From an uncultured bacterium (lineage in GTDB: Bacteria; Chloroflexota; UBA5177; JANWHV01), in contig CAVSOU010000004.1 of assembly GCA_963729625.1 (NCBI GenBank), forward strand, positions 1-64,000: a DNA stretch of 64,000 nt, given 5' to 3'. Below, piece after piece: positions 24,144-55,885 of the stretch. A model generated the notes under the pieces. It was not told the origin of the DNA. It saw nothing but the letters and a program-made list of their open reading frames with translations, and ran no database searches. The position numbers and the translations under genes are program-made. Position 1 is the stretch's first letter. Each line of letters starts with the position of its first letter.

Positions 24144-24962
24144 ATGATGTCCGCAACGAGCGTATGGCAGGAACAGGCTGATCTGTCAGTTCGTGAGTCC
24201 GTGCGCCGGGTACTGATCTGCCTGCTCGGTCCCTTTTGCATCTTCACCCAGGCGCGCCTGGTGACCGCGCGTGGCGCCACGAAGACCGCGGCGTTCTTCT
24301 GTGCCCTGGCGATCAGGCCCAGCTACTCCGCATCGCGCGACGCGCTGCTGCACACACTTTGGCCGGATGTCGAGGCGGAGCTGGCACGCCAGTCACTCAA
24401 CAGCCTCGTCTATTGTCTCCATAAGTCACTTCGAGATGCACTCGACGGTGCCACGCCGGTTCTCTACGATGGCGAGAACTACTCGCTCAACACCGAAGCC
24501 GGAATCGACCTGGATGTGGCCAGGTTCGACGAGCTCTTCACAGCTGCCAACCGTAAAGCTCAGGCCGGTAGTCCGGCGGCAGCAGCCGCCCTCTACAATC
24601 AAGCCGTCGCCCTCTATCGCGGCGACCTGTGCATTGGCTTCGACATTCAGACCGTCATCGAGCGCGAACGGCTACGCGCCCAGTATCTGAGCCTGCTTGC
24701 ACAGCTGGCGGATTACCACTACAGCGCGGCCAGCTATGATGCGTGCCTTCAGTACGCGCATCGCCTTCTTGCCAACGATCCGTGCCGGGAAGATGCTCAC
24801 AGGCTGGTCATGCGCTGTTATGTCCGTCGCGGCGAGCGCTCCCAAGCACTGCATCAGTACCTCATCTGCGAGCAGATCCTGCGCTCCCAGTTCGATGCTG
24901 CGCCAGAGCCTGCCAGCAAGGCGCTATACGATCAAGCGCGCCTTACTCCGGAGTCGGTGTGA
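24144..24962 (+). CDS. Stand-alone SARP/AfsR-family activator (wHTH + BTAD)
   Basis: ICLLGPF, SRDALLHTLWP..ARQSLNSLVYCLHKSL, DLDVARF, ALYRGDL, ERERLR, DPCREDAHRLVMRCY..GERSQALHQY. No NB-ARC or TPR extension. Confidence 0.92.
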   Translation: MMSATSVWQEQADLSVRESVRRVLICLLGPFCIFTQARLVTARGATKTAAFFCALAIRPSYSASRDALLHTLWPDVEAELARQSLNSLVYCLHKSLRDALDGATPVLYDGENYSLNTEAGIDLDVARFDELFTAANRKAQAGSPAAAAALYNQAVALYRGDLCIGFDIQTVIERERLRAQYLSLLAQLADYHYSAASYDACLQYAHRLLANDPCREDAHRLVMRCYVRRGERSQALHQYLICEQILRSQFDAAPEPASKALYDQARLTPESV

Positions 24963-25160
24963 GTTCGTCGACCCGGCGCTCCAGCTCAGATCGCGGCTGA
25001 GCCTCTCGCGCGGCTGTCTACCAGGGTCACGCTGGAATCTACGGGCGCTGGCGAATAGGCGCGAACTGGCGAGTCCAGTCCCTGCGTGCCCGTCCGTCGC
25101 GCCGCGGATCGTCACTTGGCCGCACTGTTAGGCGTCCTGCCGAGCTGCGGCTGGAGGAAA

Positions 25161-25199
25161 CCTCACCCGATCCTCATTGACACCTCATCGAGAACTCAG
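25161..25199 (+). promoter_or_regulatory. Four direct repeats with 11-bp period (putative SARP binding array)
   Basis: CTCA at 25162, 25173, 25184 and 25195 within CCTCACCCGATCCTCATTGACACCTCATCGAGAACTCAG. Confidence 0.6.
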
Positions 25200-25693
25200 G
25201 CTCATCTTCAGCAGCCATTGAGCGGGAACTCAGTGGCTACTGCTGGAATAGGTGTGGGATCGGCACGCATGATGCCGCCGCAGGCCCGACGCTGTGTTGT
25301 ACAGTCCGACAAGAGCAGTGGCTGGCAACGGAGTGATACGGCCGGCGGCACTCTGGGTGCGGACCGATGAGATTGGACGGCCGGCTCACGACAACCTGCT
25401 CGGCAAGAGAAGCAGCGGGGGATGGGCGGTGCGTCTGCCGGTAGGGTGTGCTAGGCAAACTGCGCGATTCGCTGGAGCGGTGGTGGGGAGGCTCCGCCGC
25501 CGCGTTCCGTAACCCGGCGCCCCGGAAGAAGGGCCGGCAGGACGACTGGATAGCGAGCCGCGCACCACGAGACACGTGCTTGGCGCCGACGACCCCGATT
25601 GACCGCGCGCCGCCACATCATGCCTGCCACCTCCGTGCAATCGATGCCCTCCACAAGAGCGTCGGCGCGGTCCCAGCACTGTGAGGTGGTCAC

Positions 25694-28600
25694 GTGGCAA
25701 CACAGCTTAACCTCGCGGAAATCCAGCGGTCACGACATCAGGCGAATGAGCGGGACCGCAGTCATACGTCTCCGTTGCACTCGCGGTGGTCCCGCCGCGG
25801 CTTCCTGGCAGCCTCTGGCGTTCTTGCAGCCAGCACTCTCTCGGGTGTGAGTGGAGTCCTGGCCGCCAGGACTGGAAGTGTCGTGGCCCGGCGCCAGCGA
25901 AATGGAATCGTGCTCGAGCGCGACGGCCAAGTTCTCTGGACGCTCGACCCTACGCAGTTCGAGCCCGGCGCCCGGGCGACGATTATCGCCAGTGGCCGCG
26001 ACGGCAAGGCCGCGGCAGTTGAGCTGCTCAATGCGCGGTATGCCGGTCTTGCCCTGTCGCTGACCGTGCGGCTCACGGTCACGCAGGGCGATCATCGGCT
26101 GCAGGTGTCCTGCCTGGTCGACGGGCTCAGTGCCGTGACCTGGAGTGCCGAGGTGCCGCTGTTCGACTGGCTGGACGGGCGAGCTGTCCCCCAGGCGACG
26201 CTTACGACGGCACAAGCACGCGAGGTGCTGAGCACAGTACATACGTATGGGCTCGGCGTGGTCCAGCAAGGAGCCGCACCCGTGCATGTGGCGCTCGAGC
26301 CTTCGCTCGGTCTTCGACTGATCGGACCGCTGGAACTGCAGGGAGTGTTCGGCGCCGTGCTGCCGACGCGGTGCATTGGTCTCGCACCCCTTCCCGGAGA
26401 CGCGCCGTCGCTGCTGGCGCGCCCCGCATCCCGCCGCACGCTCCTCACGGCCGACCGCGGCGCCGCCAAGTGGCAGATCGACGTACAGAAGGCACACGCT
26501 GACGGCTGGGAAATTCGCGGCCAGGGATCAAGGCTCTTCGATAGTGTTCGAGCCGAGCTATCCCGGCAAGGCGCGGCCATTCAGCTTCTTCCCTCCGGCC
26601 AGCCAAAGGGGCGCCTGCGCTTCCACCCGATTGCCGGACAGTCGGGCATGCTGCTTGATCAACCCTCGGTGGTGATAGCGCGGATCGGCGAAGAGGAATC
26701 GTATGCCGTGGTCGCCGGCTTTGCCGCCCAAGCGGGCTGGATAGCAGCCGGAACCGGCCGCGTGCAACTCGGGGCCGATCCCGAGACTGAGCCGCTCCAG
26801 GTCGCCTTCACGCAGCACGGTACGCAGACGCTGATCTGTTGTCCTGCGGTGCGAACCCTCGTCCTCCCGTTGCCTGGGGCATCCACGCTGCCGATCAACC
26901 TGCAGGGGCAGGGCCTCTCCGCCCAGCTTCGCTACGAGCAACTGTCGGAGCACGCTCATGCGCTCGTGCGGCCCACACCCACGCGGGAACCACTCGCAAT
27001 CGTGATTCCACCTAACCGGCGCCCTACTGTGAGCACTCCCTTCGACTTCACGGTGGACATCCTTCGGCATGATGATCTACTGGCGCTGAACATCGGGTTC
27101 GCGAATGCCCGACTCACGAGCGATACTCGCGGCACGAGGGTGGTTGCCAAGGATACCACGAAGCCGATGACCATGATCGTAACGTTCCCACCGCAGCACG
27201 TGGCCGAGCATGCCTACCCCGAGCACCATACCCCGTTCGACGAGCCCGGCCGGTGGTCCAAGCCGACAGAGTCGGTCTTTGCCAACACCTCGCGATTGGC
27301 CTTCCGGCTCCCGACCTCGGTCACCTCCCTCGACTACACCACTGCATCGCTGCTCGATTGGTCGCGCTTCACCCTGATCGTAGCCCCCACTGCTGCCCTG
27401 TCAGCGCCTCGCGGAGCACAGATTGCCGCGCCTTCGGCCACAGAGACTGCGTTGGAAATCCCCGAACGGCTGATCCTGTCGCCAAACGAGAAGGCCGGCT
27501 GGGTGCACGCATTCTCACCGGTCGTCCACAACAACCGGACCGAGCTGTGGCACACACGCCTGGCAGTCCGGCTGGACGACGGCCATGGCGGCACGCTGCT
27601 TGACGAGACGACTACCAGCTACCGCACGCTGCGCGCCATCTGGTCGCCCGACGTCGCGTCCGCCGCGGCGGACATATCCCCTTTGTCGCTGGCTCCGAGC
27701 GATCGTGTGCAGCTTGTCAAGCTCATGGCCACGCGCTACAGCCTCTTTCGTTCCCTGACCACGGCGTATGATTCCTCGGCTGTGGTGCCGGCTGAAACGG
27801 TCACGCGTCCCGACGATAGCAGCCCAGCCACCGTCAACAAGCTGATGCTGACCGCGCTGGGCGCCTGGATGGACGTACACGGGCATTGGGATCCCACGGC
27901 CTTCCCGTATGGATCGACCCCCGGTCTCAGCGTGGAGGACTGGACGCATATCGTGGGCATGGGACGCGACGCCTATGTGCGTGTCATGTACGGCGGCTGC
28001 CTCCTGCCGTTCGGCCACCGGGCGACGTTGATAAAAGTGGTGGAGCGGCAGTACTTCCCCGACAGCGTCGTCGCCAGTGCGTACCGCGCCCTCCCTGGTC
28101 CGGGCACTTCCGTGGGCCCTGGTGTGACCGCCTACCTGGTGGAGCGCGTGTATGTCGTGGTGCGCGAGCAGGAACGCGATTATGGCGATCCCACTGCGCA
28201 GACTCCCCAAGGCCGGGCGATGCCCTTCCAGATCGTGCGCATTCTCACCAAGACGACGCCGGACCTCGCGCTCGACGCGACTGCCAATCCGCCGATCCCG
28301 ATTCCCGCGCTGGGCAGCACGGCGGGTGAAGCGTTCTGGCCTTCCATCGACCTTGGCGGTGGGCAAATTCAGCCGTTCCTGTTCCAGCTGACCGGCACCG
28401 ACCGTGCCGGCAACACCGTGACATGGACACAGCAGCTGGCGTTCCTGGACGAAGGTTTCCAGGCCAATCCGAACGACATCATCTCGGCTTACAACAGGCT
28501 TGACCCGCTCGGCGATCGCCGCCTGATCCAGATGAACGGACAGAAGATTGCCTACGCGGTGCCGTCTGCCACCGAGCCTCACGCCACCACGTTCCCGACG

Positions 28601-30565
28601 GAGAGTATCAGCTTCGGTATCGCGCCCCAACCCTTCAGCGATCCGCATAGAGCGCACCTGCTGCCGACTATTGCGTACGATAATCCGATCACGGACCCGC
28701 AGACACTGGCTTACAGCATGCCGGTTCGAAGGCTGCAGGTGACGGACGTGGCGCTGCGCAGCCTCAGCCCCAGCCCGGACCCGCTCTACAACACGCAGGC
28801 GCAGGCGCTCATTCAGTGCGAGGCGCTCAGCCAGATCGCGGGTCAGGACGCGGGGACCGCGTTGACCTATACGGAAACGTACATCACGCACGGCTTCGAC
28901 CCCGCCTACAACAACGGCGAGGTGTTCCTGGGAGCCATTCCCGGAGCGTCATGTCCTGCCATCCACTTCAGTGCCGACCAGGTGGGCGGCGTGGCCGCTC
29001 CCAACTTCACGCTGGTCGGTCACTCGCGCCTGCTGGGACCGGTAACGGGCGATCCCAAGAACCCCGACGGGTCGCTCAAGACCCAGACGACGGGCGGGTT
29101 CGACCCGACCCAGTGCCTCAAGGATGCAGTCTTGCTCGGCGGACTGGTGCTTTCGGAGATCGTGCAAGCACTTGCTCCCGGCGGTCTCGGCAGCGACCCC
29201 AGCCACGCGCCCGTTTTCAAGTCGCAAAAGAAGTATAAGAATCCCTGTTGGACGGACCCCAAGGACGCCACGTCAAAACCCGACGGGCGCTGTGATCTGA
29301 GCAAAGACAACACGAAAGACAGCGAGCTGACGAGCCCGCCGAGCTTTGATCCCTCCGCCCAGCCAGTGGCGCTAGAAACCTTCCTCCAGTGGTCACCAAA
29401 GCTGAACGGCAGCAACCCGCCAAGCACGACACCAATACCGCCCTTCTTCGGTATTCTCATCCCCTCCTACAAGGGGGTGGGCGTCAGCCTCTCGCTCAAG
29501 GCGTCGGTGCGGACCGAGCTGATCACCAAGGTCGATGCCAAAATCACCAAGGGCGGCACTCCCAGCGACCCGAACAAGCTCAAGGTCGAGGGAGCGCTGA
29601 ACAATTTCTCCATCGTGCTGCTGGCGGTGCACCCGCTTATCCAGGTCGACTTCAACTCGTTCACGTTCTCCTATTCCATGGATAAGGGCTTCGAACCGAA
29701 GCCCGACATCGACGGCGTACAGTTCCTGAACGAGCTGAGCTTCATCTCGAAGCTCAAGGACTACCTGGCGGGCCTGTTTACCAAGAAAGGAGGCAGCGGC
29801 TCCAGCGGCTCCAAGGGCAGCAGTTTCGGCGTGTCGCCCATATTCGACCTCGGCACCGATCACATCACTGTGGGAGCTAATCTGGCGCTGCCCAGTGTCT
29901 CGGTGGGGGTCTTCGCGCTGAAGAATCTCAAGCTCGGGGCGGCCATGAAGATCCCGTTCAGCAGCCCCGTAGAGTTCGACTTCAACTTCTGCAAGCGCGA
30001 GGACCCATTCTCGCTTTCCGTGTACGGCATCGGAGGAGGCGGCTTCTTCGCACTGGGCATCGCGGCCGCCAGCGATGACAAGCACCACGGAGGGCTCAAG
30101 TCAATCGAGGCCGCCTTCGAGTTCGGCGCCAATATCTCGATCGATCTGGGCGTGGCCAGCGGCGGTGTCTTCATCAAAGCCGGCATCTACTACAGCTACG
30201 ATTCCGACCCGAAGAAGGGGACGCAGCTGCAGGGCTACCTCAAGATGGGAGGCTGCCTTTCCGTACTCGGCCTGATCACGGCCTCCCTCGAGTTTGATCT
30301 GACTCTCACCTACAAGTCGGTGAACGACAGTGTGGCTGGCGACGCGTCACTGAAGATCGAGATCGATATCTTCTTCTTCAGCGCGTCGGTGACACTTAGT
30401 GTGCACAAGGAATTCGCCGGCGGCGGGGCAAGTGGCCAACCGGCCGCCATGTCTGCGCGGCTGCCCGGCATGGCGGCAGCACTGCCGGCCGCCGGTTCCG
30501 AGCATACCTTTGCCGACATCATGTCGTCGCAGCAGTGGGGCGCATATGCTGAGGCATTTGCCTAG
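25694..30565 (+). CDS. Giant hypothetical protein (1623 aa) with a twin-arginine signal and a beta-strand-rich C-terminus
   Basis: GAGGTGG RBS with GTG start, SRRGFLAASGVLAAS Tat motif, uninterrupted 4.9-kb ORF, no recognisable catalytic family. Confidence 0.9.
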   Translation: MATQLNLAEIQRSRHQANERDRSHTSPLHSRWSRRGFLAASGVLAASTLSGVSGVLAARTGSVVARRQRNGIVLERDGQVLWTLDPTQFEPGARATIIASGRDGKAAAVELLNARYAGLALSLTVRLTVTQGDHRLQVSCLVDGLSAVTWSAEVPLFDWLDGRAVPQATLTTAQAREVLSTVHTYGLGVVQQGAAPVHVALEPSLGLRLIGPLELQGVFGAVLPTRCIGLAPLPGDAPSLLARPASRRTLLTADRGAAKWQIDVQKAHADGWEIRGQGSRLFDSVRAELSRQGAAIQLLPSGQPKGRLRFHPIAGQSGMLLDQPSVVIARIGEEESYAVVAGFAAQAGWIAAGTGRVQLGADPETEPLQVAFTQHGTQTLICCPAVRTLVLPLPGASTLPINLQGQGLSAQLRYEQLSEHAHALVRPTPTREPLAIVIPPNRRPTVSTPFDFTVDILRHDDLLALNIGFANARLTSDTRGTRVVAKDTTKPMTMIVTFPPQHVAEHAYPEHHTPFDEPGRWSKPTESVFANTSRLAFRLPTSVTSLDYTTASLLDWSRFTLIVAPTAALSAPRGAQIAAPSATETALEIPERLILSPNEKAGWVHAFSPVVHNNRTELWHTRLAVRLDDGHGGTLLDETTTSYRTLRAIWSPDVASAAADISPLSLAPSDRVQLVKLMATRYSLFRSLTTAYDSSAVVPAETVTRPDDSSPATVNKLMLTALGAWMDVHGHWDPTAFPYGSTPGLSVEDWTHIVGMGRDAYVRVMYGGCLLPFGHRATLIKVVERQYFPDSVVASAYRALPGPGTSVGPGVTAYLVERVYVVVREQERDYGDPTAQTPQGRAMPFQIVRILTKTTPDLALDATANPPIPIPALGSTAGEAFWPSIDLGGGQIQPFLFQLTGTDRAGNTVTWTQQLAFLDEGFQANPNDIISAYNRLDPLGDRRLIQMNGQKIAYAVPSATEPHATTFPTESISFGIAPQPFSDPHRAHLLPTIAYDNPITDPQTLAYSMPVRRLQVTDVALRSLSPSPDPLYNTQAQALIQCEALSQIAGQDAGTALTYTETYITHGFDPAYNNGEVFLGAIPGASCPAIHFSADQVGGVAAPNFTLVGHSRLLGPVTGDPKNPDGSLKTQTTGGFDPTQCLKDAVLLGGLVLSEIVQALAPGGLGSDPSHAPVFKSQKKYKNPCWTDPKDATSKPDGRCDLSKDNTKDSELTSPPSFDPSAQPVALETFLQWSPKLNGSNPPSTTPIPPFFGILIPSYKGVGVSLSLKASVRTELITKVDAKITKGGTPSDPNKLKVEGALNNFSIVLLAVHPLIQVDFNSFTFSYSMDKGFEPKPDIDGVQFLNELSFISKLKDYLAGLFTKKGGSGSSGSKGSSFGVSPIFDLGTDHITVGANLALPSVSVGVFALKNLKLGAAMKIPFSSPVEFDFNFCKREDPFSLSVYGIGGGGFFALGIAAASDDKHHGGLKSIEAAFEFGANISIDLGVASGGVFIKAGIYYSYDSDPKKGTQLQGYLKMGGCLSVLGLITASLEFDLTLTYKSVNDSVAGDASLKIEIDIFFFSASVTLSVHKEFAGGGASGQPAAMSARLPGMAAALPAAGSEHTFADIMSSQQWGAYAEAFA

Positions 30566-30580
30566 AGAGGAGCATGGGCC

Positions 30581-33500
30581 ATGGCATCCCAGACATTGAT
30601 GTGGACGGTCTGCCCCAACGGAATCTCGAACGGCAAGCTTCGGCTCGCGGCCGTCGTGAGCCCGCGCCTCGAAGGCGACAGCGCGCATCCCACACTGCAG
30701 AGCTTCCCCGACATGCTCAACTGGCCGGAAAAAGCGGTGACATTCAAAGTAATGCTCGAGTATTCCAAATTGGGTGCCGGCACGCGCGGCGCGGTGACGC
30801 GCGAGACCCTGGAAGCGACTGCGATTGGCCCGACGGCGGACCCGTCGATGTGGAGGGCCATATTCGGCGACGGCTCAGGCGTGCGTGTCGACTCCTACAC
30901 GTTCACCGATGTCTCCTCGCATCCCTTTCGCACCTTCTCGGTCGCGGCCATGCGGAATCTCGTCCTGCAAAGCCATCTCAACCTGATCGCCGCGTCACCG
31001 CAATCGCCCCCGTCCGTCAAGCAGGTGCTTGCCTCGGACGCGTTCGGTCCATTGGCGACTGTCCTGCCGGTAGCCGATGCCCTGCTGGGGAAACCGGTCG
31101 TCCTCACGGCGGAACAGAAGCAGCTCATCAAACAGCTGCCGCCGTTTGTGCGAGCCTGGCGCGTACCGACCAGGAAGGGTTCGACGGTCGTGCCGGCGCA
31201 GATCACCGGACTCCGGTTCAGCATGCGTCCATCCAGGGGTATAGAGCTTCAGGCGCAGCGCGCCTTCGTGTTGGAAGGCCTGCAGTACCGCCGTCGCAGG
31301 CCGGGCCCGCATCTGTCCGCGCCGCCGCCTCCCAAGCCCGACTTCCACAACGTGGTTGCATCGCTGGGGCAATACTCCGAGGTCGCCTCGAGAGTGGGTC
31401 TGACGTTCCAGCTGGAGGCGCCCCTGCCCGCCTCGCTGCCGCGCCTCGGGCTTGGTCGGGTCCGCATCTGGGTTGTCCCGACCTGGCACGCGACGGCGCC
31501 GCAGGCGGTCAACGTCACGCCAAAGACCGTCGCCCGCCTGACAGCCAGCAGCTTCGAGGCGGTCCCGCGTGACCCGGCGAGCTCGGGCCTCGCCGGCGGC
31601 TGGCTCACACTGGGCGACACCAGCGCCTTCACCATTGTCGAGCTTGACGTGGACGGCGCCTCGATGTCGCAGGCTGCCTATATGTCGACGCTCCAGGTGG
31701 ACCCATCGGGGAATCCTTTTCCGCCTCCGCTGCGCAGTGCCGGCATCGGCGTCGCGCGCGCCAATCGCTCGATCGGGCTGCTCACCGGCGCGCAGAACAG
31801 TGCCGGCAACAACGCCGCTCTCAACACAAACAAGAGCGATCCCACCCGCGGCATTCTCCTCTACGCCGAGGACCTCACGCGGGGCTATCGCATTGACGTG
31901 TATCACCAGCCGGCCGGTCAGCAATTCGGGCAGTGGTATTCGCTGTTCCAGCGCCTGGGTACCTACTCGTTCCTGACCATGGGCCAGAAACAGCAGTTCG
32001 CCGACGAAGGGTGGGTGGGCTTCGCGGCGACGCAGGACGCCGGCACGAACGATCTGAACGTGCATGAGATGCTCTTCCGCTGGATGGGCTGGAGTCTCGC
32101 CGCGCCGCGTCCAGGGGGGGCGATGGCCGACGACGGCACGGTGCCTGCGGCGGCCGACGGCACGCCGCAGGACTCCACGCGGACAACGCCGCCCGCCGCA
32201 TCGCCCTACCAGGTCCAGGTGTCCTTCAAGCCGAAGCCCGGCAGTCTTCCGCGCCTACGCTATGGCGATACCTATCGGCTCCGCGCGCGAGTCGTCGACC
32301 TGGCCGGGAACAGCCTCCCGCCAGATGCCAGCTCGGCGGGTGTGAAGAACTCCGAGACGGCGGCGATCATGTATGGCCGGTTCGACCCGATCGTGTCGCC
32401 GGTGGTGATCCCGCGCACGACACTGGGCCCAGGGGAGACCCCGACGCGCCTGGTGATGCGCAGCGCATATGATACAACGACTGATACGTACGCTACGCCA
32501 ACGTCTGTGGAGCGGCATCTGCTGCCGCCACATGCGGCGCCGAGCGTAGCGGAGCTACACGGCAGGTTCGACGCCGTGAATGGGTCGGGAAAGTCTATCG
32601 TAGACGTCGGTGCCTATGGCACTATCCTCTCGCATGAAGGGGTGCCGCCGGATGGCGAGCCAGGGGCAACGCTCGTCGCACCGTACCTGCCCGAACCGCT
32701 GGCACGCGGGGCCACGTTCTACGGCCTGCCGCAGAGTCCCAGGACCTTCCAGCCGGTGCTGTACAGCGGCACTTGGCCCTCTATCAGCAGTGCGCGGCTG
32801 ATTCTCGGCCCGACCTCGAAGCGGCAGGCAGGGCCGGCACTGCGCACGGTAACGCTTCCCAACTCGCCGCCGCTCTCGTTGCTGCCGCCAGTCACAACCG
32901 GTGCACTGACGGTACTATTGCGTCCGGGCGAGCAGGTGACCATGTTCGTGAGCTCAACACTCGACCTGACGAGCCTGCCGCTGTTGGCCATCTGGAACCA
33001 GCTGAGTCCGCGTCTCATCTCGAATGCCGATTTCGATCTCGCGCGCCAGCTGGTGGCGGCAGGGGCGTTCTGGGCCGTCACGCCGTACAGCCCGGTAACG
33101 CTCACGTACGCCGTGCAAGTACCGCTGGTGCCGGGCGGCAGGAAGCAGCTTCACTACAAGAGCCTGCAGGCCACGCGCTACGTGCCGGGTGAGACGGTCG
33201 TCAGGCTCGTCGGGTCGCTGGCCATCGACGGCCCCAGCACCGGCACTTTCCAGGTGGTGGCAGACTGGACAGATCCCCTCGATGACCCGACGACGCAGGC
33301 GCCGGGTACGGTCGCGCACAGCACCAACGCGCTTTTGAAGCATGTCTTGCCCAACCAAATGGAGCTTCTTCTCAAGGGTCGGACCGGCGATCTCCATGAA
33401 GTTGGAGATACGAAGGCCCACACCATCACCTACAGCGGCGTCGCGACTACCCGCTACGCCGACTGTTTTGATCCGGAGACATCACCGCTCACGCGCCCAT

Positions 33501-34690
33501 GCACGGCCATCACGGCGAGCGTGCCAAGCTCCGCGCGACCCGCTCCGCCGGCGGTACGCTACGCGATTCCCTCCGTCGGCTGGAGCGCGCGGCCGCGTGC
33601 CGGCTCCGAGAACGGCAGGCCGATCACAAGTCGGCGCACCGGGGGCAGCCTGAGGATCTATCTCGACCGGCCCTGGTATTCATCGGGTGAGGGTGAGCTG
33701 CTGGGAGTGGTGTATTACCCGCCGCAACCGCCGGCAGGCCAGGCCTCGGGAACGCACGCGCTCGGAGGGCAGCGCATAGTTCCGCCCGACCAATTGCGGC
33801 CTTACGTCACCCAGTGGGGAGTCGATCCCGTCCATGGCGGGGTTCCCACATTCGCGCCGAGCCAGCAGCCCGACGAATATATCGCGTCAAACATCAGCAA
33901 GCCCTCCAACTGGCCGGTTGCCGTGGCATTCACGAGCCAGTCTGTGGTTATAGCACAGAATGGAACCTGCTTTGATGGCACGGCGGAAGTTCCGGCCGGG
34001 GCGAGCCTGGCCGGCCTCAAGCTGGATGAGATGACGGGCCGGACCGATAGCGCCGGCAGCCTGAATGTCTCAGTAGCGCCGTACGCGGTGACGTTCGACG
34101 CGGACCGCCGCCTCTGGTACGCCGACATCCAGCTCAATATCGGCCTGGCGCACATGCCGATCGTACGGCTCGCCCTGGTCCGCTACCAGCCCAACTCGAT
34201 CGCGGGGGTGGAGCTGAGCCGAGTGATGCTTGCCGACATTATCCAGCTCCTGCCCGACCGGACGGCCACCCTCACTGTTTCCGGCGCCTCCGCGACCGTG
34301 AGTGTCACGGGACATAGCTACGCGACGCTCGATACGTACCGGCGCGAGGAGAGCACGTTGCCGCTGCACACGGGTACTTTGCTCACGGACTACTATCGCT
34401 TCCAGTGGCCGCGCTTCACGGCCACGTTGGAAGAGGCAGCGCACGTCTCCAGCGACCTGCAGGCCTGGAGAGCCGTCTCCGAACCGCTTGTCATGCAGTT
34501 TGACCAGGGAACGCAGTACGCCGAGTCGTTCGTCGTGCGGGCAGCGTTCAACAATCTCGAGCGCGGCACGCAGTACCGGATCGTGGTTCGCGAGTACGAA
34601 GGGGCGATGACCGATGCCAACCGCTCAGATCGACAAGACGTCTCTAGCCGTCTGGTGTACGCCGATGCGCTCGACTTGCCGCGTCTATAA
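30581..34690 (+). CDS. Giant hypothetical protein (1369 aa), operon partner
   Basis: GAGGAG RBS, starts 15 nt after the preceding stop, no signal peptide, Pro/Gly/aromatic beta-type motifs such as YRLRARVVDLAGNS. Confidence 0.9.
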   Translation: MASQTLMWTVCPNGISNGKLRLAAVVSPRLEGDSAHPTLQSFPDMLNWPEKAVTFKVMLEYSKLGAGTRGAVTRETLEATAIGPTADPSMWRAIFGDGSGVRVDSYTFTDVSSHPFRTFSVAAMRNLVLQSHLNLIAASPQSPPSVKQVLASDAFGPLATVLPVADALLGKPVVLTAEQKQLIKQLPPFVRAWRVPTRKGSTVVPAQITGLRFSMRPSRGIELQAQRAFVLEGLQYRRRRPGPHLSAPPPPKPDFHNVVASLGQYSEVASRVGLTFQLEAPLPASLPRLGLGRVRIWVVPTWHATAPQAVNVTPKTVARLTASSFEAVPRDPASSGLAGGWLTLGDTSAFTIVELDVDGASMSQAAYMSTLQVDPSGNPFPPPLRSAGIGVARANRSIGLLTGAQNSAGNNAALNTNKSDPTRGILLYAEDLTRGYRIDVYHQPAGQQFGQWYSLFQRLGTYSFLTMGQKQQFADEGWVGFAATQDAGTNDLNVHEMLFRWMGWSLAAPRPGGAMADDGTVPAAADGTPQDSTRTTPPAASPYQVQVSFKPKPGSLPRLRYGDTYRLRARVVDLAGNSLPPDASSAGVKNSETAAIMYGRFDPIVSPVVIPRTTLGPGETPTRLVMRSAYDTTTDTYATPTSVERHLLPPHAAPSVAELHGRFDAVNGSGKSIVDVGAYGTILSHEGVPPDGEPGATLVAPYLPEPLARGATFYGLPQSPRTFQPVLYSGTWPSISSARLILGPTSKRQAGPALRTVTLPNSPPLSLLPPVTTGALTVLLRPGEQVTMFVSSTLDLTSLPLLAIWNQLSPRLISNADFDLARQLVAAGAFWAVTPYSPVTLTYAVQVPLVPGGRKQLHYKSLQATRYVPGETVVRLVGSLAIDGPSTGTFQVVADWTDPLDDPTTQAPGTVAHSTNALLKHVLPNQMELLLKGRTGDLHEVGDTKAHTITYSGVATTRYADCFDPETSPLTRPCTAITASVPSSARPAPPAVRYAIPSVGWSARPRAGSENGRPITSRRTGGSLRIYLDRPWYSSGEGELLGVVYYPPQPPAGQASGTHALGGQRIVPPDQLRPYVTQWGVDPVHGGVPTFAPSQQPDEYIASNISKPSNWPVAVAFTSQSVVIAQNGTCFDGTAEVPAGASLAGLKLDEMTGRTDSAGSLNVSVAPYAVTFDADRRLWYADIQLNIGLAHMPIVRLALVRYQPNSIAGVELSRVMLADIIQLLPDRTATLTVSGASATVSVTGHSYATLDTYRREESTLPLHTGTLLTDYYRFQWPRFTATLEEAAHVSSDLQAWRAVSEPLVMQFDQGTQYAESFVVRAAFNNLERGTQYRIVVREYEGAMTDANRSDRQDVSSRLVYADALDLPRL

Positions 34691-34706
34691 GGCCGCGTCC
34701 CGGGTG

Positions 34707-36320
34707 ATGCGGGGACTGCTCTGCACCGTGCTCCTCGCCGCGGGCGCCGTCGCTTCTTCGCCATCGCCAGTTCGGGCAAGCCCGGATCGCGAAGCAAGCA
34801 GGCTCGTCCCGATCGTGGTCGTCGTCGGCGATCTTGGAGCCGTGACGGAAGGCAAGGCGGTGAGCGGGATCATCGCCACGTTTCCTCTTGCTTCCGGGTG
34901 CGGTGCCGCGGAATGCTTCCGCGCGAGCATCGGCTGGGGGGACGAAAGCACAGGTCTTGGCGTCGTGCAGGTGGCGTCCGACAACTCCGCGTACACGGTG
35001 ACCGGCGCGCACACCTGGCCGGCGGCAGGTCAGTACACGCTCGTCGTTCAGGTGTTCGGCATCGACGGATCCATTGGTGTCGGCGCCAGGACCATAGCCG
35101 TCGATGACGCACCGCTGACCGCGTGGGGCATGACGCTCACCGGCATGACCAGCGTGCCCATCAGCGGGTTTATCGCCACGTTAATCGACGCGAACGCGTA
35201 CGCCACGGCGGCGAGCTTCGACGCGAGCATCGACTGGGGAGACGGAAGCACAACTGGTGGCCAGGTCGTCGCATGGGGCGGCGTGGGAGGCAACTCGGGC
35301 CTGGCAGTAACCGGCACGCACACCTATGCGACCCCGTCGACGTATGCCGTCACCGTTCACATCGTCGATCATGGCGGCGCGACGGTGCTGGCGAACTCGA
35401 CAGTGACGATTGCCGGGCCGCCTACCGAGACACCGACGGCGACACCTTCGCCCACACTCATGCCAACCGCAACATGGACCGCGACGGCGACACCCACGCC
35501 TTCGCCGACGTCGACTCCCTCCTACACGCCGTTACCGACGTCGACGCCTTCACCCTCCTACACGCCCTCGCCGACGCTCACAAGCACCATGTTGCTGATT
35601 CCCAAGCGATCCAGCACGGCCACACCCTCCCGCCTCGCCGTCGTTGCCACCCCGACGCGACTTCCCGGCGGCTGCAAGGTGACCACCGTGCTGTCAGCGT
35701 ACTCGTGCCGCGGCAGCAGTGTGTACTTCATCGACGTCCATGTCGGCTCAAGTGCCCGGCGAGCGACGGGTATCTTCGTCTCTCGCGGGCCACATGGGTC
35801 GTACCTGATCACCACGAGCGACACGGTGCGTGGTGCCAAGCCGAAGGACGTGCGTGCCAAGGTGGCCTACACCTATACCAGTCAGATTGGCTACGACGTC
35901 GTGTATCACGTGCTCCCAAGTAAGGTGAGTACGACCGGCCGAGGGGTGCTGGCGATCGTACATGTGTGGACTATCGGCCCACCAGCCGTGCCATGGGGAG
36001 ATTCCGGTGCAATGCATGCGGGGCAACAGGCGGTCGCGCTCGCCTTCGTGTCGCCCCAGACGCACAAGCTGCAGGGTGCGACCGGCAAGATCACGGCGAC
36101 AAAACTGGACCTGCATGACGGCAGCGGCCGCTTCTGGCTCGGTTTCAGCGCGACCTACAAGCCGTTCCTGGAGGGAGCAGCTCTTCTGAGTTCTGACGGT
36201 CTCCTGCTTGGTATCGTAGTCGGTGCGGGTCCGCGCGGCACGACACTGGTCTTTCCTGCCAACCAAGCGAAGCAGGTGGCGGCGGCCACGATCGCCGCGG
36301 CTGGGCTTCGGTCACCATAA
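34707..36320 (+). CDS. Secreted protein: 2x PKD/Ig-like domains, Pro/Thr linker, degenerate trypsin-like (S1/HtrA) domain
   Basis: Signal MRGLLCTVLLAAGAVA..VRA. Repeats ASIGWGD..VTGAHTW..GQYT and ASIDWGDG..VTGTHTY..TYAV. TPTATPSPT linker. ATGIFV..YLITT and GAALL..DGLLLGIV. Confidence 0.8.
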   Translation: MRGLLCTVLLAAGAVASSPSPVRASPDREASRLVPIVVVVGDLGAVTEGKAVSGIIATFPLASGCGAAECFRASIGWGDESTGLGVVQVASDNSAYTVTGAHTWPAAGQYTLVVQVFGIDGSIGVGARTIAVDDAPLTAWGMTLTGMTSVPISGFIATLIDANAYATAASFDASIDWGDGSTTGGQVVAWGGVGGNSGLAVTGTHTYATPSTYAVTVHIVDHGGATVLANSTVTIAGPPTETPTATPSPTLMPTATWTATATPTPSPTSTPSYTPLPTSTPSPSYTPSPTLTSTMLLIPKRSSTATPSRLAVVATPTRLPGGCKVTTVLSAYSCRGSSVYFIDVHVGSSARRATGIFVSRGPHGSYLITTSDTVRGAKPKDVRAKVAYTYTSQIGYDVVYHVLPSKVSTTGRGVLAIVHVWTIGPPAVPWGDSGAMHAGQQAVALAFVSPQTHKLQGATGKITATKLDLHDGSGRFWLGFSATYKPFLEGAALLSSDGLLLGIVVGAGPRGTTLVFPANQAKQVAAATIAAAGLRSP

Positions 36321-36424: not shown

Positions 36425-36754
36425 TCAGGGGGCATACATGGCAGCGAGAGTCTCAAGCACCAACTGCTGCGTGGCCGCATCGAGCACACCGAGTTCGCGC
36501 ACGAGACGTGACTTGTTCACCACGCGCATCTGGTCCAGCGCAATCTCGCCGTGCCTGCCCTGAAACTCGCAGGCCACACGCGTCGGATAGGCCCGGCCGC
36601 GTGTGGTCATCGGAGCGATGATCACCGTGGCGATGGACTTATTCATCTCGTCGGGTGACACCGCGAGGGCCGGTCGGGACTTCTGCATCTCGGAACCAAC
36701 GGTGGGGTCGAGCGAGACCAAGTAGATGGCAAAGCGGCGGACTACCACTGCCAT
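36425..36754 (-). CDS. mazF: Type II toxin, PemK/MazF family endoribonuclease
   Basis: IYLVSLDPTVGSEMQKSRPAL.VSPDEMN..VIIAPMTT, LDQMRVV.KSRL. Confidence 0.93.
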   Translation of the reverse strand: MAVVVRRFAIYLVSLDPTVGSEMQKSRPALAVSPDEMNKSIATVIIAPMTTRGRAYPTRVACEFQGRHGEIALDQMRVVNKSRLVRELGVLDAATQQLVLETLAAMYAP

Positions 36755-37008
36755 TCAGTCAGACCCCAGCTGGTCGGCGCCAGGTCCTTGGCGTCGAGCA
36801 ACGCGTCGTCGTGCTGGGCGGCCATGACCTGGAAAGCCTCCTCCCACCCACTGCGGGGGTGCTGGACCGCCGAGATCACCAGGCGGCTCTCTTCGAGACG
36901 TATCTCGACGGTATCCCGCAAGCCGGCCTGCTCGACCAGGGCCTTCGGGATGCGGATGCCCTGCGAGTTGCCGATGCGGATCAGGCGGGTGCGGACAGCG
37001 TTGGCCAT
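36742..37008 (-). CDS. mazE: AbrB/MazE/SpoVT family antitoxin
   Basis: RLIRIGNSQGIRIPKAL, PRSGWEEAF, acidic C-terminus ending EWQW. Overlaps the toxin start. Confidence 0.92.
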   Translation of the reverse strand: MANAVRTRLIRIGNSQGIRIPKALVEQAGLRDTVEIRLEESRLVISAVQHPRSGWEEAFQVMAAQHDDALLDAKDLAPTSWGLTEWQW

Positions 37009-37040
37009 GGGCAATCTCCAGGTATCGGGGCTTTCGACGG

Positions 37041-37057
37041 AAGTAATTACATTGTAG
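37041..37057 (-). promoter_or_regulatory. Putative TA promoter -10 and autoregulatory palindrome
   Basis: Minus-strand TACAAT adjacent to palindrome GTAATTAC (37043-37050), an AT-rich patch upstream of the antitoxin. Confidence 0.55.
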
Positions 37058-37169
37058 GTCCACCCACCGGTGAGATCAACCCGGATGACACGGTTCCAAG
37101 CGAGATTACCAAGCGCCGGGGAACCGCACGGTGCATAGCGATACACCTGACGGCACCTGGGACAGAGGC

Positions 37170-37451
37170 GTTACTTCGACGGCATCAACCGGCAGAAGCC
37201 CGTGGCCGACGAGCACCTGACCGTGGACGACAACCTCGAGGAGTTCGGGCCGATCTCAGATCGGGATCTTGCCTTCCTGGATGCGGAGTCAGCGCGGCTG
37301 GCTGGCGATGCTTGACGACATCGTAGACGCCGGCTTCGATATCATCAATCCGGTGCAGACGTCGGCCGCGGGAATGGATCCAGTCGCGCTCAAGCAGAAG
37401 TACGGCGACCGGGTAACGTTCTGGGGCGGCGGCATCGACACGCAACGAGTG
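37170..37451 (+). pseudogene. Internally deleted uroporphyrinogen-decarboxylase/methyltransferase-family remnant
   Basis: YFDGINRQKP..DNLEEFGPISD is joined out of frame to DAGFDIINPVQTSAAGMDP..LKQKYGDRVTFWGGGIDTQ. Confidence 0.75.
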
Positions 37452-37639
37452 CACAATTCTCTAAGATGTATGTCGCGTGTCTGGAAGTGCCTTGCTAGAG
37501 ACAAATGTGCGTGTCAGCGTTATTATGGCCGATCCGACGTGCAGCCCAGCATTGCCGACCATCCATCATCGCCAGGGTCCAGGAGCCGCGTCGGGTCTGC
37601 CATGGTGAGGCACTCTAGACGCTCGAAAGGGGGCGCCTC

Positions 37640-38203
37640 ATGAAGGTGACAAAGGATCGGCTCGACATTCAGACGAACGTGGTTGACGCGCGCGGCCCTT
37701 CAGTGGGCGAGTGGTTGTTGCTCGGCCTCAGCGTGGCAGGCGCGCCGCTCTCCCGCTATGTGCGGCGGCGCCTCGGCCGGAGAGGTGGCTACCTGCTGCT
37801 GGGCGGTTGCGGCACACTGTTTGCGCGCGACGCCGCGATGATAGCCGGCGGAGCGCCGCACAGGCTGCAACGCGTGCCGCGCTTTCTGCTCTTCCTTGAG
37901 CTGGCGCTGAACGGAATGGCCGTGATCGCTGGCTGTTGGGCGTGGACGTGCGGCGCACGGCGCGGTGATGAGGTCAAGGCAGCATCCGGGGTGGACCTTG
38001 GCGACGGAGCGCCAGGAGCACTCGCCCGCGGCACGGCACTCGTCAGCCCTCGCGGCTGGTCCCGAGTCAGTGAGGCTGCCGCCGAAGCGGCACTGGTGGT
38101 GCACGCCGGCAGGATGGCCATCTACGTCGTCAGCCCAAGTCGCGGGCGCAGCAGGCGGGCAATCAGCACGGTGACCAGCTCGCGGCCGGCGCCCAGTCTG
38201 TAG
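37640..38203 (+). CDS. Hypothetical membrane protein (contains repeat copy 2)
   Basis: AAGGGGG RBS-like sequence, several hydrophobic segments, no family recognised. Confidence 0.6.
   Translation: MKVTKDRLDIQTNVVDARGPSVGEWLLLGLSVAGAPLSRYVRRRLGRRGGYLLLGGCGTLFARDAAMIAGGAPHRLQRVPRFLLFLELALNGMAVIAGCWAWTCGARRGDEVKAASGVDLGDGAPGALARGTALVSPRGWSRVSEAAAEAALVVHAGRMAIYVVSPSRGRSRRAISTVTSSRPAPSL
37931..38109 (+). repeat. 179-bp direct repeat, copy 2
   Basis: Near-identical to 23753-23931. Confidence 0.95.
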
Positions 38204-38348
38204 GTCCTTGCCAACAGCGTATTCTCCTCTGCCGCGATGGACTGTCTAGCTAGGCATCGCCGGTGCCTCGCTCGTGCAGTGTACGCGCATTGTGCCTCGA
38301 CGTGGGCCGCGGCACGAGTCTACAATGAGCACGGGAAAGGAGACCGCC

Positions 38349-38864
38349 ATGGCAGCGTCGATTCTCGTGGCATATGCTACCCGCTACGGCTCGACACGGG
38401 AAGTGGCCGAGGCAGTCGCGGCGACGCTGCGCGAACGGGGCCTTGCGGTAGATATGGAGCCTGTCCGGCAGGCGCGGGCACTCGATCACTATGAAGCGAT
38501 CGTGCTGGGAGCGCCCTTGTACATGTTCCACTGGCATAAGGATGCGCGCCGGTTCCTGGCGCGGCACCGCAGAGCTCTCACCGGCCACCCCGTGGCCATT
38601 TTCGCACTCGGCCCATTTCATGCGGATGAGCAGGAGTTTCAGGGCGCCCGCAACCAGCTCGACAAAGAGTTGGCGAAGTTCCCCTGGCTGACCCCGGCAC
38701 GGATTGGCATCTTTGGCGGCGCATTCGACCCGCAGAAGCTTACCTTCCCGCACAGTGTGATTCCCGCCCTCAAGAAAATGCCCGCTAGCGATGTGCGGGA
38801 CTGGTCGGCGATCCGCACCTGGACGGGCGAACTGGCGGCGCAATTGCAGGAGGCGCGGGCCTGA
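38349..38864 (+). CDS. Flavodoxin-domain protein (HemG-like)
   Basis: ILVAYATRYGSTREVAE, IVLGAPLY..W, FGGAFD, DVRDWSAIRTW. AAGGAG RBS. Confidence 0.88.
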   Translation: MAASILVAYATRYGSTREVAEAVAATLRERGLAVDMEPVRQARALDHYEAIVLGAPLYMFHWHKDARRFLARHRRALTGHPVAIFALGPFHADEQEFQGARNQLDKELAKFPWLTPARIGIFGGAFDPQKLTFPHSVIPALKKMPASDVRDWSAIRTWTGELAAQLQEARA

Positions 38865-39059
38865 GCGAGCCTGGGGATGGATGTGCGGCAGGCACGGCGC
38901 TGGAGCGGTGCGTATGGCGTAGCCGGCATCGTAGCATGCATTGTGCCGACGCAGCGTTGGAACCGACGTGCCGTGTCTACAATACGATACATCGCGATCG
39001 CCACGGCCGTTATCCTGCGTGCGCGGAAGCCAGCCCTCCGTATCAACAGCGCCAGCGTG

Positions 39060-39205
39060 ATGGTCCCTCGACGGCCGAGCAACACCTCAACGAGACCCTC
39101 GTGCAGGAGTACGAGCGCGCCTTGCTGGTACGCGCAGAGGCGCTGGCGCGACTGCAGGCACGCGGGCGCGATATCGCGCCCCTCCCCGCCCCCGCCACAG
39201 GGTGA
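39060..39205 (+). pseudogene. C-terminal part of a small helical protein coupled to the HNH gene (putative antitoxin-like); start not defined
   Basis: LVQEYERALLVRAEALARLQARGRDI. Its stop overlaps the GTG start of the HNH gene. Confidence 0.45.
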
Positions 39206-39655
39206 GCACGACCCCTATCCCTGCCGCACTCCGTGCATGCGTGGCGGAGCTGGCCGGCTACCGCTGTGGCTACTGCCTCACCGCCGAGGAGGTCGTCGGC
39301 TCGCCCTTGGAAATCGACCACCTCATGCCCAAGGCGCATGGCAGCCGTACCCGTCGAGAACAACCTGTGGCTCGCCCGCTCGGCGTGCAACAGCCACAAG
39401 TGCGACAGTACCACGGGCCTAGATCCGCTCTCCGGCGAGATCGTTCCTCTGTTCAATCCGCGATCCCAGTCCTGGTACGAGCACTTCACCTGGACAACCG
39501 GCCACGACTACGTGATCGGCCGCACGGCGATCGGACGCGCCACCGTCGCCTCCCTCAAGCTCAATCGTCCGCTCTTAGTGCGGGCTCGCCGCCTCTGGGT
39601 GCGCCCTGGTGTCCGTGCTCCTCAGGGTGTGGGCCCCAATCCACCACACCCTTGA
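39202..39655 (+). pseudogene. HNH endonuclease, frameshifted near 39345
   Basis: RCGYC..LEIDHLMP then, in another frame, NLWLARSACNSHK..PLFNPRSQSWYEHF.W..GRATVASLKLN. Confidence 0.85.
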
Positions 39656-40161
39656 GCGCGCTCCGGTTCACACTGCATGCAGAGCCGAGAGGCGCGCCAA
39701 GCAGTTGCACCACTGTGCGGTCGGCGGGAACTCGGGAGGGTCACAAACGGCACAGCTCAGCGCATACCGCGCGCTGCTACCCGTACCGTACGCGCGTACA
39801 GGCAACGAGCAGGCCGTCGCCTGTCAATACACTTCAGGTGGTCTCCATCGTGCAACGGGTAGATCTGCTCTGTATTCCGGAGCAAGTACGACGAATGCGC
39901 CTGTGGAGTGGCGTGGCGAGCGGTCTATCGCCGAGCCACGGCACAGCCGGACCAGCTGTCGCCGATACTTGAGCAATCTTCTCGGCGGCGAGCCCAGCCA
40001 GCGTAAGCCGGGAGCGTACTTCTGTTTTCCCCCGCCAGGTTGGCGGCGTCGCTGCCGTCACGGCGCTCTGCATGTATGGATGGCACGCGCCGCGCAACGG
40101 GCAGCGGCTTACGCCCAACAGCTCGGCGAGCGTAGTCGCCGATCCTGCCAGGGAGTCTTGG

Positions 40162-40578
40162 TCAGGCGGAAGGTTCAGACGGATTTGCGTGCGTCGCCGA
40201 CGAGGATGCGGTGTATTTCTGCGCACTCCCGCGCGCAAGCTTAAGGGGATACTTCGCGCCATTCGCAGCGAGCTTGGCGACAACGGCACAGGCAATGTCG
40301 ACTTCCATGCAATCAGCCATGCTGCTGCAGAGTACCAGTACGTCGGCCAGCTCCCCAACGACGCTCTGCCCAACCAGTCCATCCGCAGTCGCTGCCTCCG
40401 ATTCCTGAGCCGTCACCCACAGCAGCGGTTCCGGCAGCTTGGCGGCCTCGATGAAGATAGCCACGGCCGATTCCTTGGGGCAATGAGACTACCCCCAATC
40501 TCGCTCGCGCGAATGCTCGCACGCGTTCCCTCAGGTCGCCAACAGTCGTCGTCGCATTCTGCATCTGGTTGCACTCAT
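40162..40578 (-). pseudogene. MazG-like nucleotide pyrophosphohydrolase (DCTPP1-like), disrupted
   Basis: TTVGDLRERVRAFA / ERDWG*SHCPK..IEAA..GELADV..KLAANGAKYP..ARGSAQKY. Contains a frameshift and an in-frame TAG. Confidence 0.8.
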
Positions 40579-40587
40579 CTACTCAGC

Positions 40588-43095: not shown

Positions 43096-43104
43096 AGAGG
43101 CACT

Positions 43105-55494: not shown

Positions 55495-55885
55495 TGCTGC
55501 TCCTCTTGCACCTGCACGCCAGCCACAGCCGATTTCGTTGTGGCAGCGGCAGCCGGTCGTGCATGGCTCCGGCTCCGGCCATGCGGTCTGCCACCGATTC
55601 CACCATAGCACCTGTAGCGCTAGGGCCTCTGTTGCGCGCGTCGTCCACAGCAGTGGCGAGGGCGTCGAGCCACTGTCGCCATCGTGCATACCCATACGCC
55701 GCCACACAAGGTCCCACGACGGCTCGGGCGAGAAACATAGAGCTTCAGCCACGAAACGGTACGCTCACGGCGTGGGCGCATCGCTCTCATTGCCCCATCT
55801 GATCAGGTACTGCGGCCAGAGAAGGTTGCTACGATGGAGCTGTGGTAGGTGTGCTGGTGCGGACGAGGCGGGAGTGAATAGGCCA

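Follow-up and report, generated by a model that had tools for sequence, protein, structure and literature searches.

What do two giant genes that lie end to end in an uncultured Chloroflexota bacterium encode, and why do they stay together? The question is raised by a stretch of DNA of 64,000 nucleotides, hereafter the window (contig CAVSOU010000004.1 of assembly GCA_963729625.1, positions 1 to 64,000 of the forward strand), in which gene A (25694–30565, plus strand) encodes a protein of 1623 amino acids and 172.9 kDa and gene B (30581–34690, plus strand) a protein of 1369 amino acids and 146.9 kDa without a signal peptide. The pair is preceded by a stand-alone SARP gene (24144–24962, plus strand; 272 amino acids) and followed by gene C (34707–36320, plus strand; 537 amino acids, from an internal start within the open reading frame 34614–36320). 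A preliminary description of this DNA had joined all four genes into one secreted machine. Its coordinates, protein sizes and intergenic gaps, 15 nucleotides between A and B (30566–30580) and 16 between B and C (34691–34706), are reproduced from the list of open reading frames and their translations; the four-gene machine is not, and the conserved unit consists of A and B only, with the SARP and C as local additions. A and B are best explained as putative subunits encoded by a two-gene module, autonomous and horizontally mobile, for a giant, beta-rich heteromeric exoprotein. We give a probability of about one half to the best-supported mechanism, in which the SARP would switch the pair on and twin-arginine translocation (Tat) would export it as a heterodimer.

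The conserved unit was delimited by collecting loci that carry B. With one genome per species, 71 loci were kept from at least 660 confirmed relatives among at least 732 pattern matches; they come from many phyla, including Acidobacteriota, Armatimonadota, Actinomycetota, Chloroflexota, Pseudomonadota, Verrucomicrobiota and Bacillota. By tblastn, 65 of the 71 have a homologue of A immediately upstream of B and on its strand, and in the other 6 (L019, L034, L040, L043, L047 and L049) B begins at the contig edge. The distance from the stop codon of A to the start of B is between −4 and +30 nucleotides in 41 of 53 loci; in the window, B is predicted to be translationally coupled to A over the 15-nucleotide gap. 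Clustering of the 855 open reading frames of the kept loci returns only A and B as recurrent clusters (58 and 60 loci), the next most frequent being a cluster of antisense-like frames found in 7, and a Pfam scan of 91 immediate neighbours of the cassette finds a miscellany of unrelated genes, housekeeping genes among them, with a few small exceptions set out below. Neither the SARP nor C is present in any of the 71 loci or in two further copies of the cassette in this genome.

The same picture emerges from two other collections. Among 41 related genomes, A occurs in 9, all of them among the 11 with B, and the two with B only are incomplete (75% and 58%) and hold B in fragmentary form. In a plasmid collection, B matches 19 records and A 22; 16 hold full-length A and B as neighbours, every pair being annotated ‘hypothetical protein’, and the carriers are megaplasmids of the Bacillus cereus group, plasmids of Streptomyces, the chromid of Cupriavidus metallidurans CH34, Rhizobium and Diaphorobacter. 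In the two real A-only records (S. meliloti HM006 and Ruegeria THAF33), A is likewise followed at once by a second giant gene, and the third (Paraburkholderia) is a 3% match. Independent occurrence of either gene, which the preliminary description had named as a refuting condition, was looked for in the kept loci, the related genomes and the plasmids and was not found, so that the pair is obligate in these collections; the remark, in the same description, that such hypothetical proteins occur as pairs in other soil bacteria is confirmed by the homologue and locus searches. A–B is a self-contained two-gene unit with no third recurrent gene.

Judged by its sequences, the pair is outside every catalogued family tested. 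A and B match 0 families in Pfam and NCBIfam (E ≤ 0.1), in line with the earlier remark that neither giant has an assignable catalytic motif, and 0 families in PADLOC and PHROGs. Against PDB sequences there are 0 matches, either for the single proteins (E ≤ 1) or for their family profiles (E ≤ 10), and Pfam (E ≤ 0.01) finds no family in common among 31 homologues of A and 26 of B. The only matches in the ESM Atlas are to clusters labelled ‘hypothetical protein’, keyword searches of one literature library found no description of either family, and a search of phage genomes gave 0 matches for relatives of A and 0 for relatives of B. By hhalign, the two proteins are unrelated to each other. The profiles of AsmA, TamB and DUF490 have no sequence match to either protein, that class being defined by its fold (the beta-taco), and a partial, segment-by-segment scan for internal repeats found nothing above 60% in the segments compared. 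A word-indexed search returned 114 homologues of A and 398 of B, and residues 1–1200 of B match 3114 clusters at E ≤ 1e-3, 1425 of them at E ≤ 1e-30, among 1.84 billion representatives. The pair has thousands of members in at least a dozen phyla, and no name, domain model or solved relative. Its carriers include culturable Streptomyces, Bacillus, Cupriavidus metallidurans CH34 and rhizobia, and any function found would annotate all of them.

Protein A is built from an N-terminal signal region, an optional extension, a core and a C-terminal domain. Its translation opens with VATQLNLAEIQR, and its N-terminal motif is LNLAEIQR (25706–25729, plus strand; family form R-L-N-L-x-A-L-R); this motif recurs in the N-termini of homologues, including a Bacillus homologue that has no twin-arginine (RR) signal, and each of the three copies in this genome has it. 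The motif precedes the RR signal (25790–25867, plus strand). After it comes the extension domain (25886–27043, plus strand; about residues 65–450), which only about one in two homologues in the alignment possesses; many homologues begin at residue ~455. The alignments and the conservation profile then define a conserved core (27056–29173, plus strand; residues 455–1160) with the blocks FPPQH, ETALE.P.RL.LSP, RTELWHTRL and GRD.YVRV.Y.G.L.PFGHRA. The chain ends in a glycine-rich domain (29564–30562, plus strand; residues 1291–1623) with the stretches GGGGFF and GVASGG, which ranks among the best-conserved parts of A in the same profile and is common to relatives of 2300–2574 amino acids; searched for in shorter proteins, it gave 192 matches, all fragment-like and without a Pfam domain. 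B is conserved along its whole length, and its N-terminus, M..Q.I.WTALPNG at residues 1–15, is the very start of full-length homologues. Every motif block listed in the preliminary description is conserved in the family alignments, with W619 and H620 of RTELWHTRL, for example, invariant. Its view that both proteins are beta-rich also agrees with a crude hydrophobic-periodicity proxy, by which both appear mostly beta, and a hydrophobic-moment proxy gives the last 330 residues of A a near-continuous amphipathic beta pattern.

How might such a pair leave the cell? The signal of A reads S33-R34-R35-G-F-L, followed by an Ala/Gly/Ser-rich hydrophobic region and by L-A-A before R59, and thus has the features, read from the sequence, of a Tat substrate: S/T-R-R-x-F-L-K, a weakly hydrophobic region and an A-x-A-like cleavage site. 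In the public annotation, A (P0004, 1560 amino acids) is called from Met64 (25883), 63 codons later, and so lacks the signal. We favour the longer form, from the GTG at 25694, because the N-terminal motif is conserved in homologues and because a ribosome-binding site, GAGGTGG (25683–25689, plus strand; also read from the sequence), stands 4 nucleotides before that GTG. In each of the three copies in this genome, the N-terminal motif comes with both an RR signal and the extension; the giant rhizobial A-like proteins all carry an RR signal, as does the Streptomyces plasmid copy; and the TAT_signal model PF10518 reaches E 2.4e-4 and 21.3 bits, below its 22.7-bit cut-off, in the homologue P0111. 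The genome encodes a Tat translocase on contig C14, with TatC (PF00902, E 1.9e-54) and TatA (PF02416, E 1.2e-16).

A second link to Tat comes from gene neighbourhoods elsewhere in the family. A search for small open reading frames found a solitary tatA touching the cassette in 4 of the 71 loci, upstream of A in L066 and L009 and after B in L017 and L062; the genomes of these four loci have 1, 3, 4 and 2 tatA genes. A fifth case is a variant on S. meliloti plasmid pC, where a gene for an A-like protein of 3052 amino acids, a 15-nucleotide gap, a gene for a B-like protein of 1766 amino acids, a 49-nucleotide gap and an annotated tatA follow one another. All five of these tatA genes score above the cut-off of PF02416, and no tatC was found in the fetched loci. 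By our own estimate, one to four tatA genes among a few thousand genes would place one beside the cassette by chance in ~0.1% of loci, or in ~0.1 of 71, compared with the 4 seen. A tatA paralogue beside the gene of its putative cargo recalls TatAd/TatCd–PhoD of Bacillus subtilis and the TatE-type solitary TatA paralogues, and a 2026 review describes TatA paralogues tuned to particular substrates (PMC13673990). Unlike TatAd/TatCd–PhoD, A–B is linked to tatA only and not to tatC, the linkage is limited to the 4 of 71 loci and the one plasmid variant, and there is none in this window. If the Tat reading is true, it would supply a reason for the extra tatA genes in some genomes.

The signal is on A only, and none of the full-length B homologues inspected has one. 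Of 21 long B homologues scanned, 6 carry PG_binding_1, Laminin_G_3, fn3, HYDIN/ASH Ig-like or pAdhesive_15 modules. With a signal on A alone and a co-translated B whose relatives bear modules of an extracellular type, co-export by a hitchhiker route is the simplest reading: A and B would fold and assemble in the cytoplasm, and a complex of about 313 kDa would exit by Tat on the long twin-arginine signal of A, with the signal-less B as passenger. Of the exported complex claimed in the preliminary description, export of A is thus supported by the Tat signal and the flanking tatA genes, and export of B is suggested by the extracellular-type modules. The small and large subunits of [NiFe]-hydrogenase are a Tat hitchhiker pair of this kind, and DmsAB and PaoABC are further ones. 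The hitchhiker route is known for Tat enzyme pairs (PMC4273604, PMC10924467). The likeness of A–B to these pairs extends to one signal-bearing subunit with a long n-region and a co-encoded partner without a signal; hitchhiker pairs are thought to assemble before export, and A and B may do the same. The hitchhiker pairs differ in being redox enzymes that carry cofactors and reach about 140 kDa (PMC13673990), whereas neither a cofactor nor an enzyme domain can be recognised in A–B; the pair would amount to 313 kDa, its rhizobial variants reach 3052 + 1766 residues, and a third of the family lacks a signal.

The missing signal of B could also mean that B never crosses the membrane. In this alternative only A is exported, and B would be a cytoplasmic partner that stays behind, for instance a giant factor for assembly or proof-reading that keeps hold of A during folding, as the uniform lack of a signal in the inspected full-length B homologues would suggest. 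The n-region of the Tat signal of A is long and includes a conserved motif, and in other Tat substrates dedicated chaperones bind at the n-region. We nevertheless consider this alternative very unlikely, in that the peptidoglycan-binding, lectin and fn3 modules of B homologues are sensible only outside the cell and a 147-kDa chaperone conserved over its whole length would be odd.

In the hitchhiker reading, the work of the complex would begin outside the cell, where B would be the binding part, equipped in relatives with peptidoglycan-binding, lectin, FN3, Ig-like or adhesive modules, and the glycine-rich, amphipathic beta domain at the C-terminus of A would be the working end, either membrane-active or self-associating. 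Tentatively, and with the odds against it, this picture may be widened to a new class of extracellular two-subunit machines. A–B and its rhizobial relatives (3000 + 1800 residues) would fold and pair in the cytoplasm, cross the Tat system whole at 313 kDa or more, at least twice the size of the largest known cargo, with the help of a dedicated TatA in some lineages, and then bind a target surface through B and attack or anchor through the beta domain of A. If the Tat reading is true, the size limit of folded-protein transport could be tested with a natural cargo two to several times larger than any studied.

What would turn the pair on? The protein encoded upstream of A matches the BTAD domain (PF03704, E 5e-26), an AfsR-type model in NCBIfam and, over residues 26–262 with the winged helix included, the solved SARP domain of AfsR (8hvr, E 1.6e-11), whereas Trans_reg_C is matched only at E 0.083; these matches bear out the earlier identification of a stand-alone SARP. 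Its gene is local to this copy and stands outside the conserved cassette. Between the SARP stop codon and the start of A lies a candidate SARP-box-like array (25161–25198, plus strand) of three CCTCA units and one ACTCA at an exact spacing of 11 nucleotides. With one mismatch allowed, this pattern occurs nowhere else in the window (0.02 expected by chance), and the exact CCTCA triple occurs once in the 5.41-Mb genome and 0 times in the control, although these statistics are flattering because the pattern was chosen after it had been seen. Classical SARP sites are described in PMC10972967 as heptameric direct repeats in 11-bp units, often three, and the same source has SARPs usually controlling antibiotic clusters. 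The arrangement here, a stand-alone SARP beside its presumed target and three to four direct repeats in 11-nucleotide units, resembles that of SARP-controlled actinomycete clusters. It differs from them in that the presumed target is two giant structural genes rather than a biosynthetic cluster, and the SARP linkage is unique to this copy of A–B, unlike the family elsewhere. The uniqueness and phasing of the candidate array speak for a possible control of A–B by the SARP, as proposed earlier; the SARP would bind the four repeats and switch on a promoter for A and B, perhaps with C; the two giants would then be made in step from one mRNA. If this link is true, the SARP family of regulators extends beyond small-molecule biosynthesis.

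Several observations weigh against a SARP-switched, Tat-exported heterodimer. The array stands about 500 nucleotides from the start codon of A, no clear −10 box was found after it, and the leader of A has a fold that is not unusual (z −0.97) and gives one chance-level match, and none that is significant, in Rfam. The signals of 110 A homologues were scored with a home-made regular expression. By this measure 37 have an RR signal, followed in 18 by the extension of ~400 residues and in 19 directly by the core; 34 start at the core without a signal, 9 have the extension without RR, and the N-termini of the remaining 30 are truncated or of another kind. An RR signal is also lacking in the copies of Bacillus and of Cupriavidus CH34, and some homologues have basic, low-complexity N-termini. 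The signal-less homologues mean that Tat export is not universal to the family, so that the complex would work, or be released, in some other way too. Size is a further objection. The 2026 review cited above puts natural Tat cargo at under 10 kDa to ‘over 140 kDa’ (PMC13673990); A alone exceeds 140 kDa, and Tat export of the pair would therefore be unprecedented.

The same signal-less homologues, and those with basic, low-complexity N-termini, would suit a system that acts in the cytoplasm against phages or in another conflict, with the RR signal as a lineage-specific extra. The surroundings fit in part, as a McrBC-like system lies 4 kb downstream here and the rhizobial variants adjoin Dpd, restriction and methylase genes. 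Such a role is nonetheless highly improbable in our judgement. The anti-phage models of PADLOC give 0 matches with A, B or C, a Pfam search of A, B and their homologues turned up no nuclease, ATPase or other enzymatic domain, the family is tied to Tat through both its signals and the tatA genes, and the modules on B homologues are of an extracellular type.

The distribution of the module bears on what an exported A–B complex might do. This genome, a 5.41-Mb draft of 21 contigs that is 87% complete, holds three A–B cassettes, one in the window (contig C4) and one each on C10 and C8, and the proteins of the other two are only about 29–33% identical to those of the window. In a FastTree phylogeny of 59 B proteins, the window B is placed on a long branch, away from its two fellow copies, which group with each other, and phyla are only partly clustered. 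Across the phylum, B is found in 15 of 401 sampled genomes, representing 9 of 217 genera. A–B is an accessory, mobile module that evolves fast. Of the copies in this genome, the third B (C8:125887–129934, minus strand; L080) matches in two adjoining pieces, at profile positions 2–1053 and 1054–1238, and may be frameshifted.

Such a patchy, accessory distribution would suit a binary toxin, the leading idea of the preliminary description and a more specific form of the two-subunit exoprotein, in which B would bind a target cell and the C-terminal beta domain of A would insert a pore or deliver a payload against competitors or predators. Carriage by megaplasmids of the Bacillus cereus group and by plasmids of rhizobia and Streptomyces points the same way, as do the long branches and the divergent copies within one genome, the variable binding modules on B homologues, the amphipathic C-terminus of A and the antibiotic clusters that SARPs usually govern. 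A giant pair on a Ruegeria sp. THAF33 plasmid (L130; 3311 + 1899 amino acids) lies between genes for a zinc phospholipase C and an M35 metallopeptidase, a setting in keeping with this reading. We still regard a toxin as unlikely: A, B and their homologues have no Pfam match to the toxin families Binary_toxB/PA, aerolysin/ETX-MTX2, MACPF or Toxin_10, no conserved immunity-like neighbour stands beside the cassette in the kept loci, and the one toxin label in the family failed every test, as set out below.

That label belongs to the Herbiconiux homologue of A (P0112, UniRef100_A0ABT2GU34), named ‘Tc toxin complex TcA C-terminal TcB-binding domain-containing protein’ in UniProt. There is a general likeness to TcA, in that A and B are very large, probably exported proteins of a probable multi-subunit assembly encoded by adjacent genes and some relatives of A are of TcA size (2300–3300 amino acids). 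PF18276 is, however, unmatched (E ≤ 10) in P0112 itself and in four pieces of A, and is also unmatched in a six-frame search of this genome. Comparison by hhalign of the A profiles with 8 natural TcA C-terminal domains, taken from genomes of another class with the exclusion of three genomes flagged as unpublished, gave a probability of 0.1%. On the partner side, B and 25 of its homologues are without SpvB, TcdB-mid and RHS domains (0 Pfam families). TcA identity is rejected on these grounds, and the name of P0112 is likely a mislabel.

An exported A–B complex could also stay on its producer as an adhesin, a matrix component or a cell-wall-associated scaffold. Such an envelope structure would be well served by modules that B homologues carry (PG_binding_1, fn3, Ig-like and ice-binding-like adhesive). 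In one clade without signals, a GT2 glycosyltransferase gene lies 20–40 nucleotides upstream of A (L045, L052 and L064) and a small 2OG-Fe(II) oxygenase gene directly after B (L043 and L064). These neighbours hint at post-translational modification of the giants, and the linkage suggests glycosylation or hydroxylation of a structural protein. The distribution of the pair is too patchy for a core part of the envelope, several divergent copies in one genome fit such a part poorly, and no sortase, lipobox or S-layer-type domain was found by Pfam in A or B, so that we hold a surface structure to be quite unlikely. Should the complex prove to be either a toxin or an adhesin, soil and sediment bacteria would have in it a new kind of weapon or device for attachment.

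Another plasmid-borne copy has a neighbour of its own. On a Bacillus bombysepticus plasmid (L123), a gene for a 142-amino-acid AvrRpt2-like protease of papain fold (Peptidase_C70, E 2e-14) lies just upstream of A.

Gene C, the last gene of the local arrangement, is a lineage-specific addition to the pair. Its product has a signal-peptide-like N-terminus, two stretches that weakly resemble PKD, a Pro/Thr linker and a domain with weak likeness to trypsin, and had been described as a secreted PKD/pseudoprotease. The signal-peptide-like N-terminus supports the first part of that description; the second is plausible only, as the Pfam scores are below their cut-offs (22.3 bits for Trypsin_2, where 27.6 are needed, and 15.8 for PKD, where 23.5 are needed) and the loss of the catalytic triad was judged by eye. 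C has no match among PDB sequences, and its paralogues in this genome are weak only (E 1e-13 to 2e-5, on contigs C14, C11 and C10). Proteases are encoded downstream of the cassette in L027 and L052. A relationship between C and the L027 protease was rejected by comparison, which finds the two unrelated.

The rest of the window appears to be in better order than the preliminary description had it. The claim of a window full of decayed genes is not borne out by a Pfam scan, in which 17 of the 25 large open reading frames covered have a match at E ≤ 1e-5, several over the whole profile. Between the SARP gene and A, a minus-strand open reading frame (25237–25575) was judged spurious from its composition. 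Further away, an open reading frame of 857 amino acids (53182–55752, minus strand) has as its sole Pfam match a 2OG-Fe(II) oxygenase domain at residues 206–293, the remainder being without a match. The McrBC-like restriction pair mentioned above (40591–45075, minus strand) consists of a DUF2357 + PDDEXK_7 protein of 835 amino acids and an AAA_5 ATPase of 656. Five open reading frames of 187–256 amino acids lie between C and this pair (36655–40656, on both strands); they have no Pfam match at E ≤ 1e-5 and might be further cargo of the same island.

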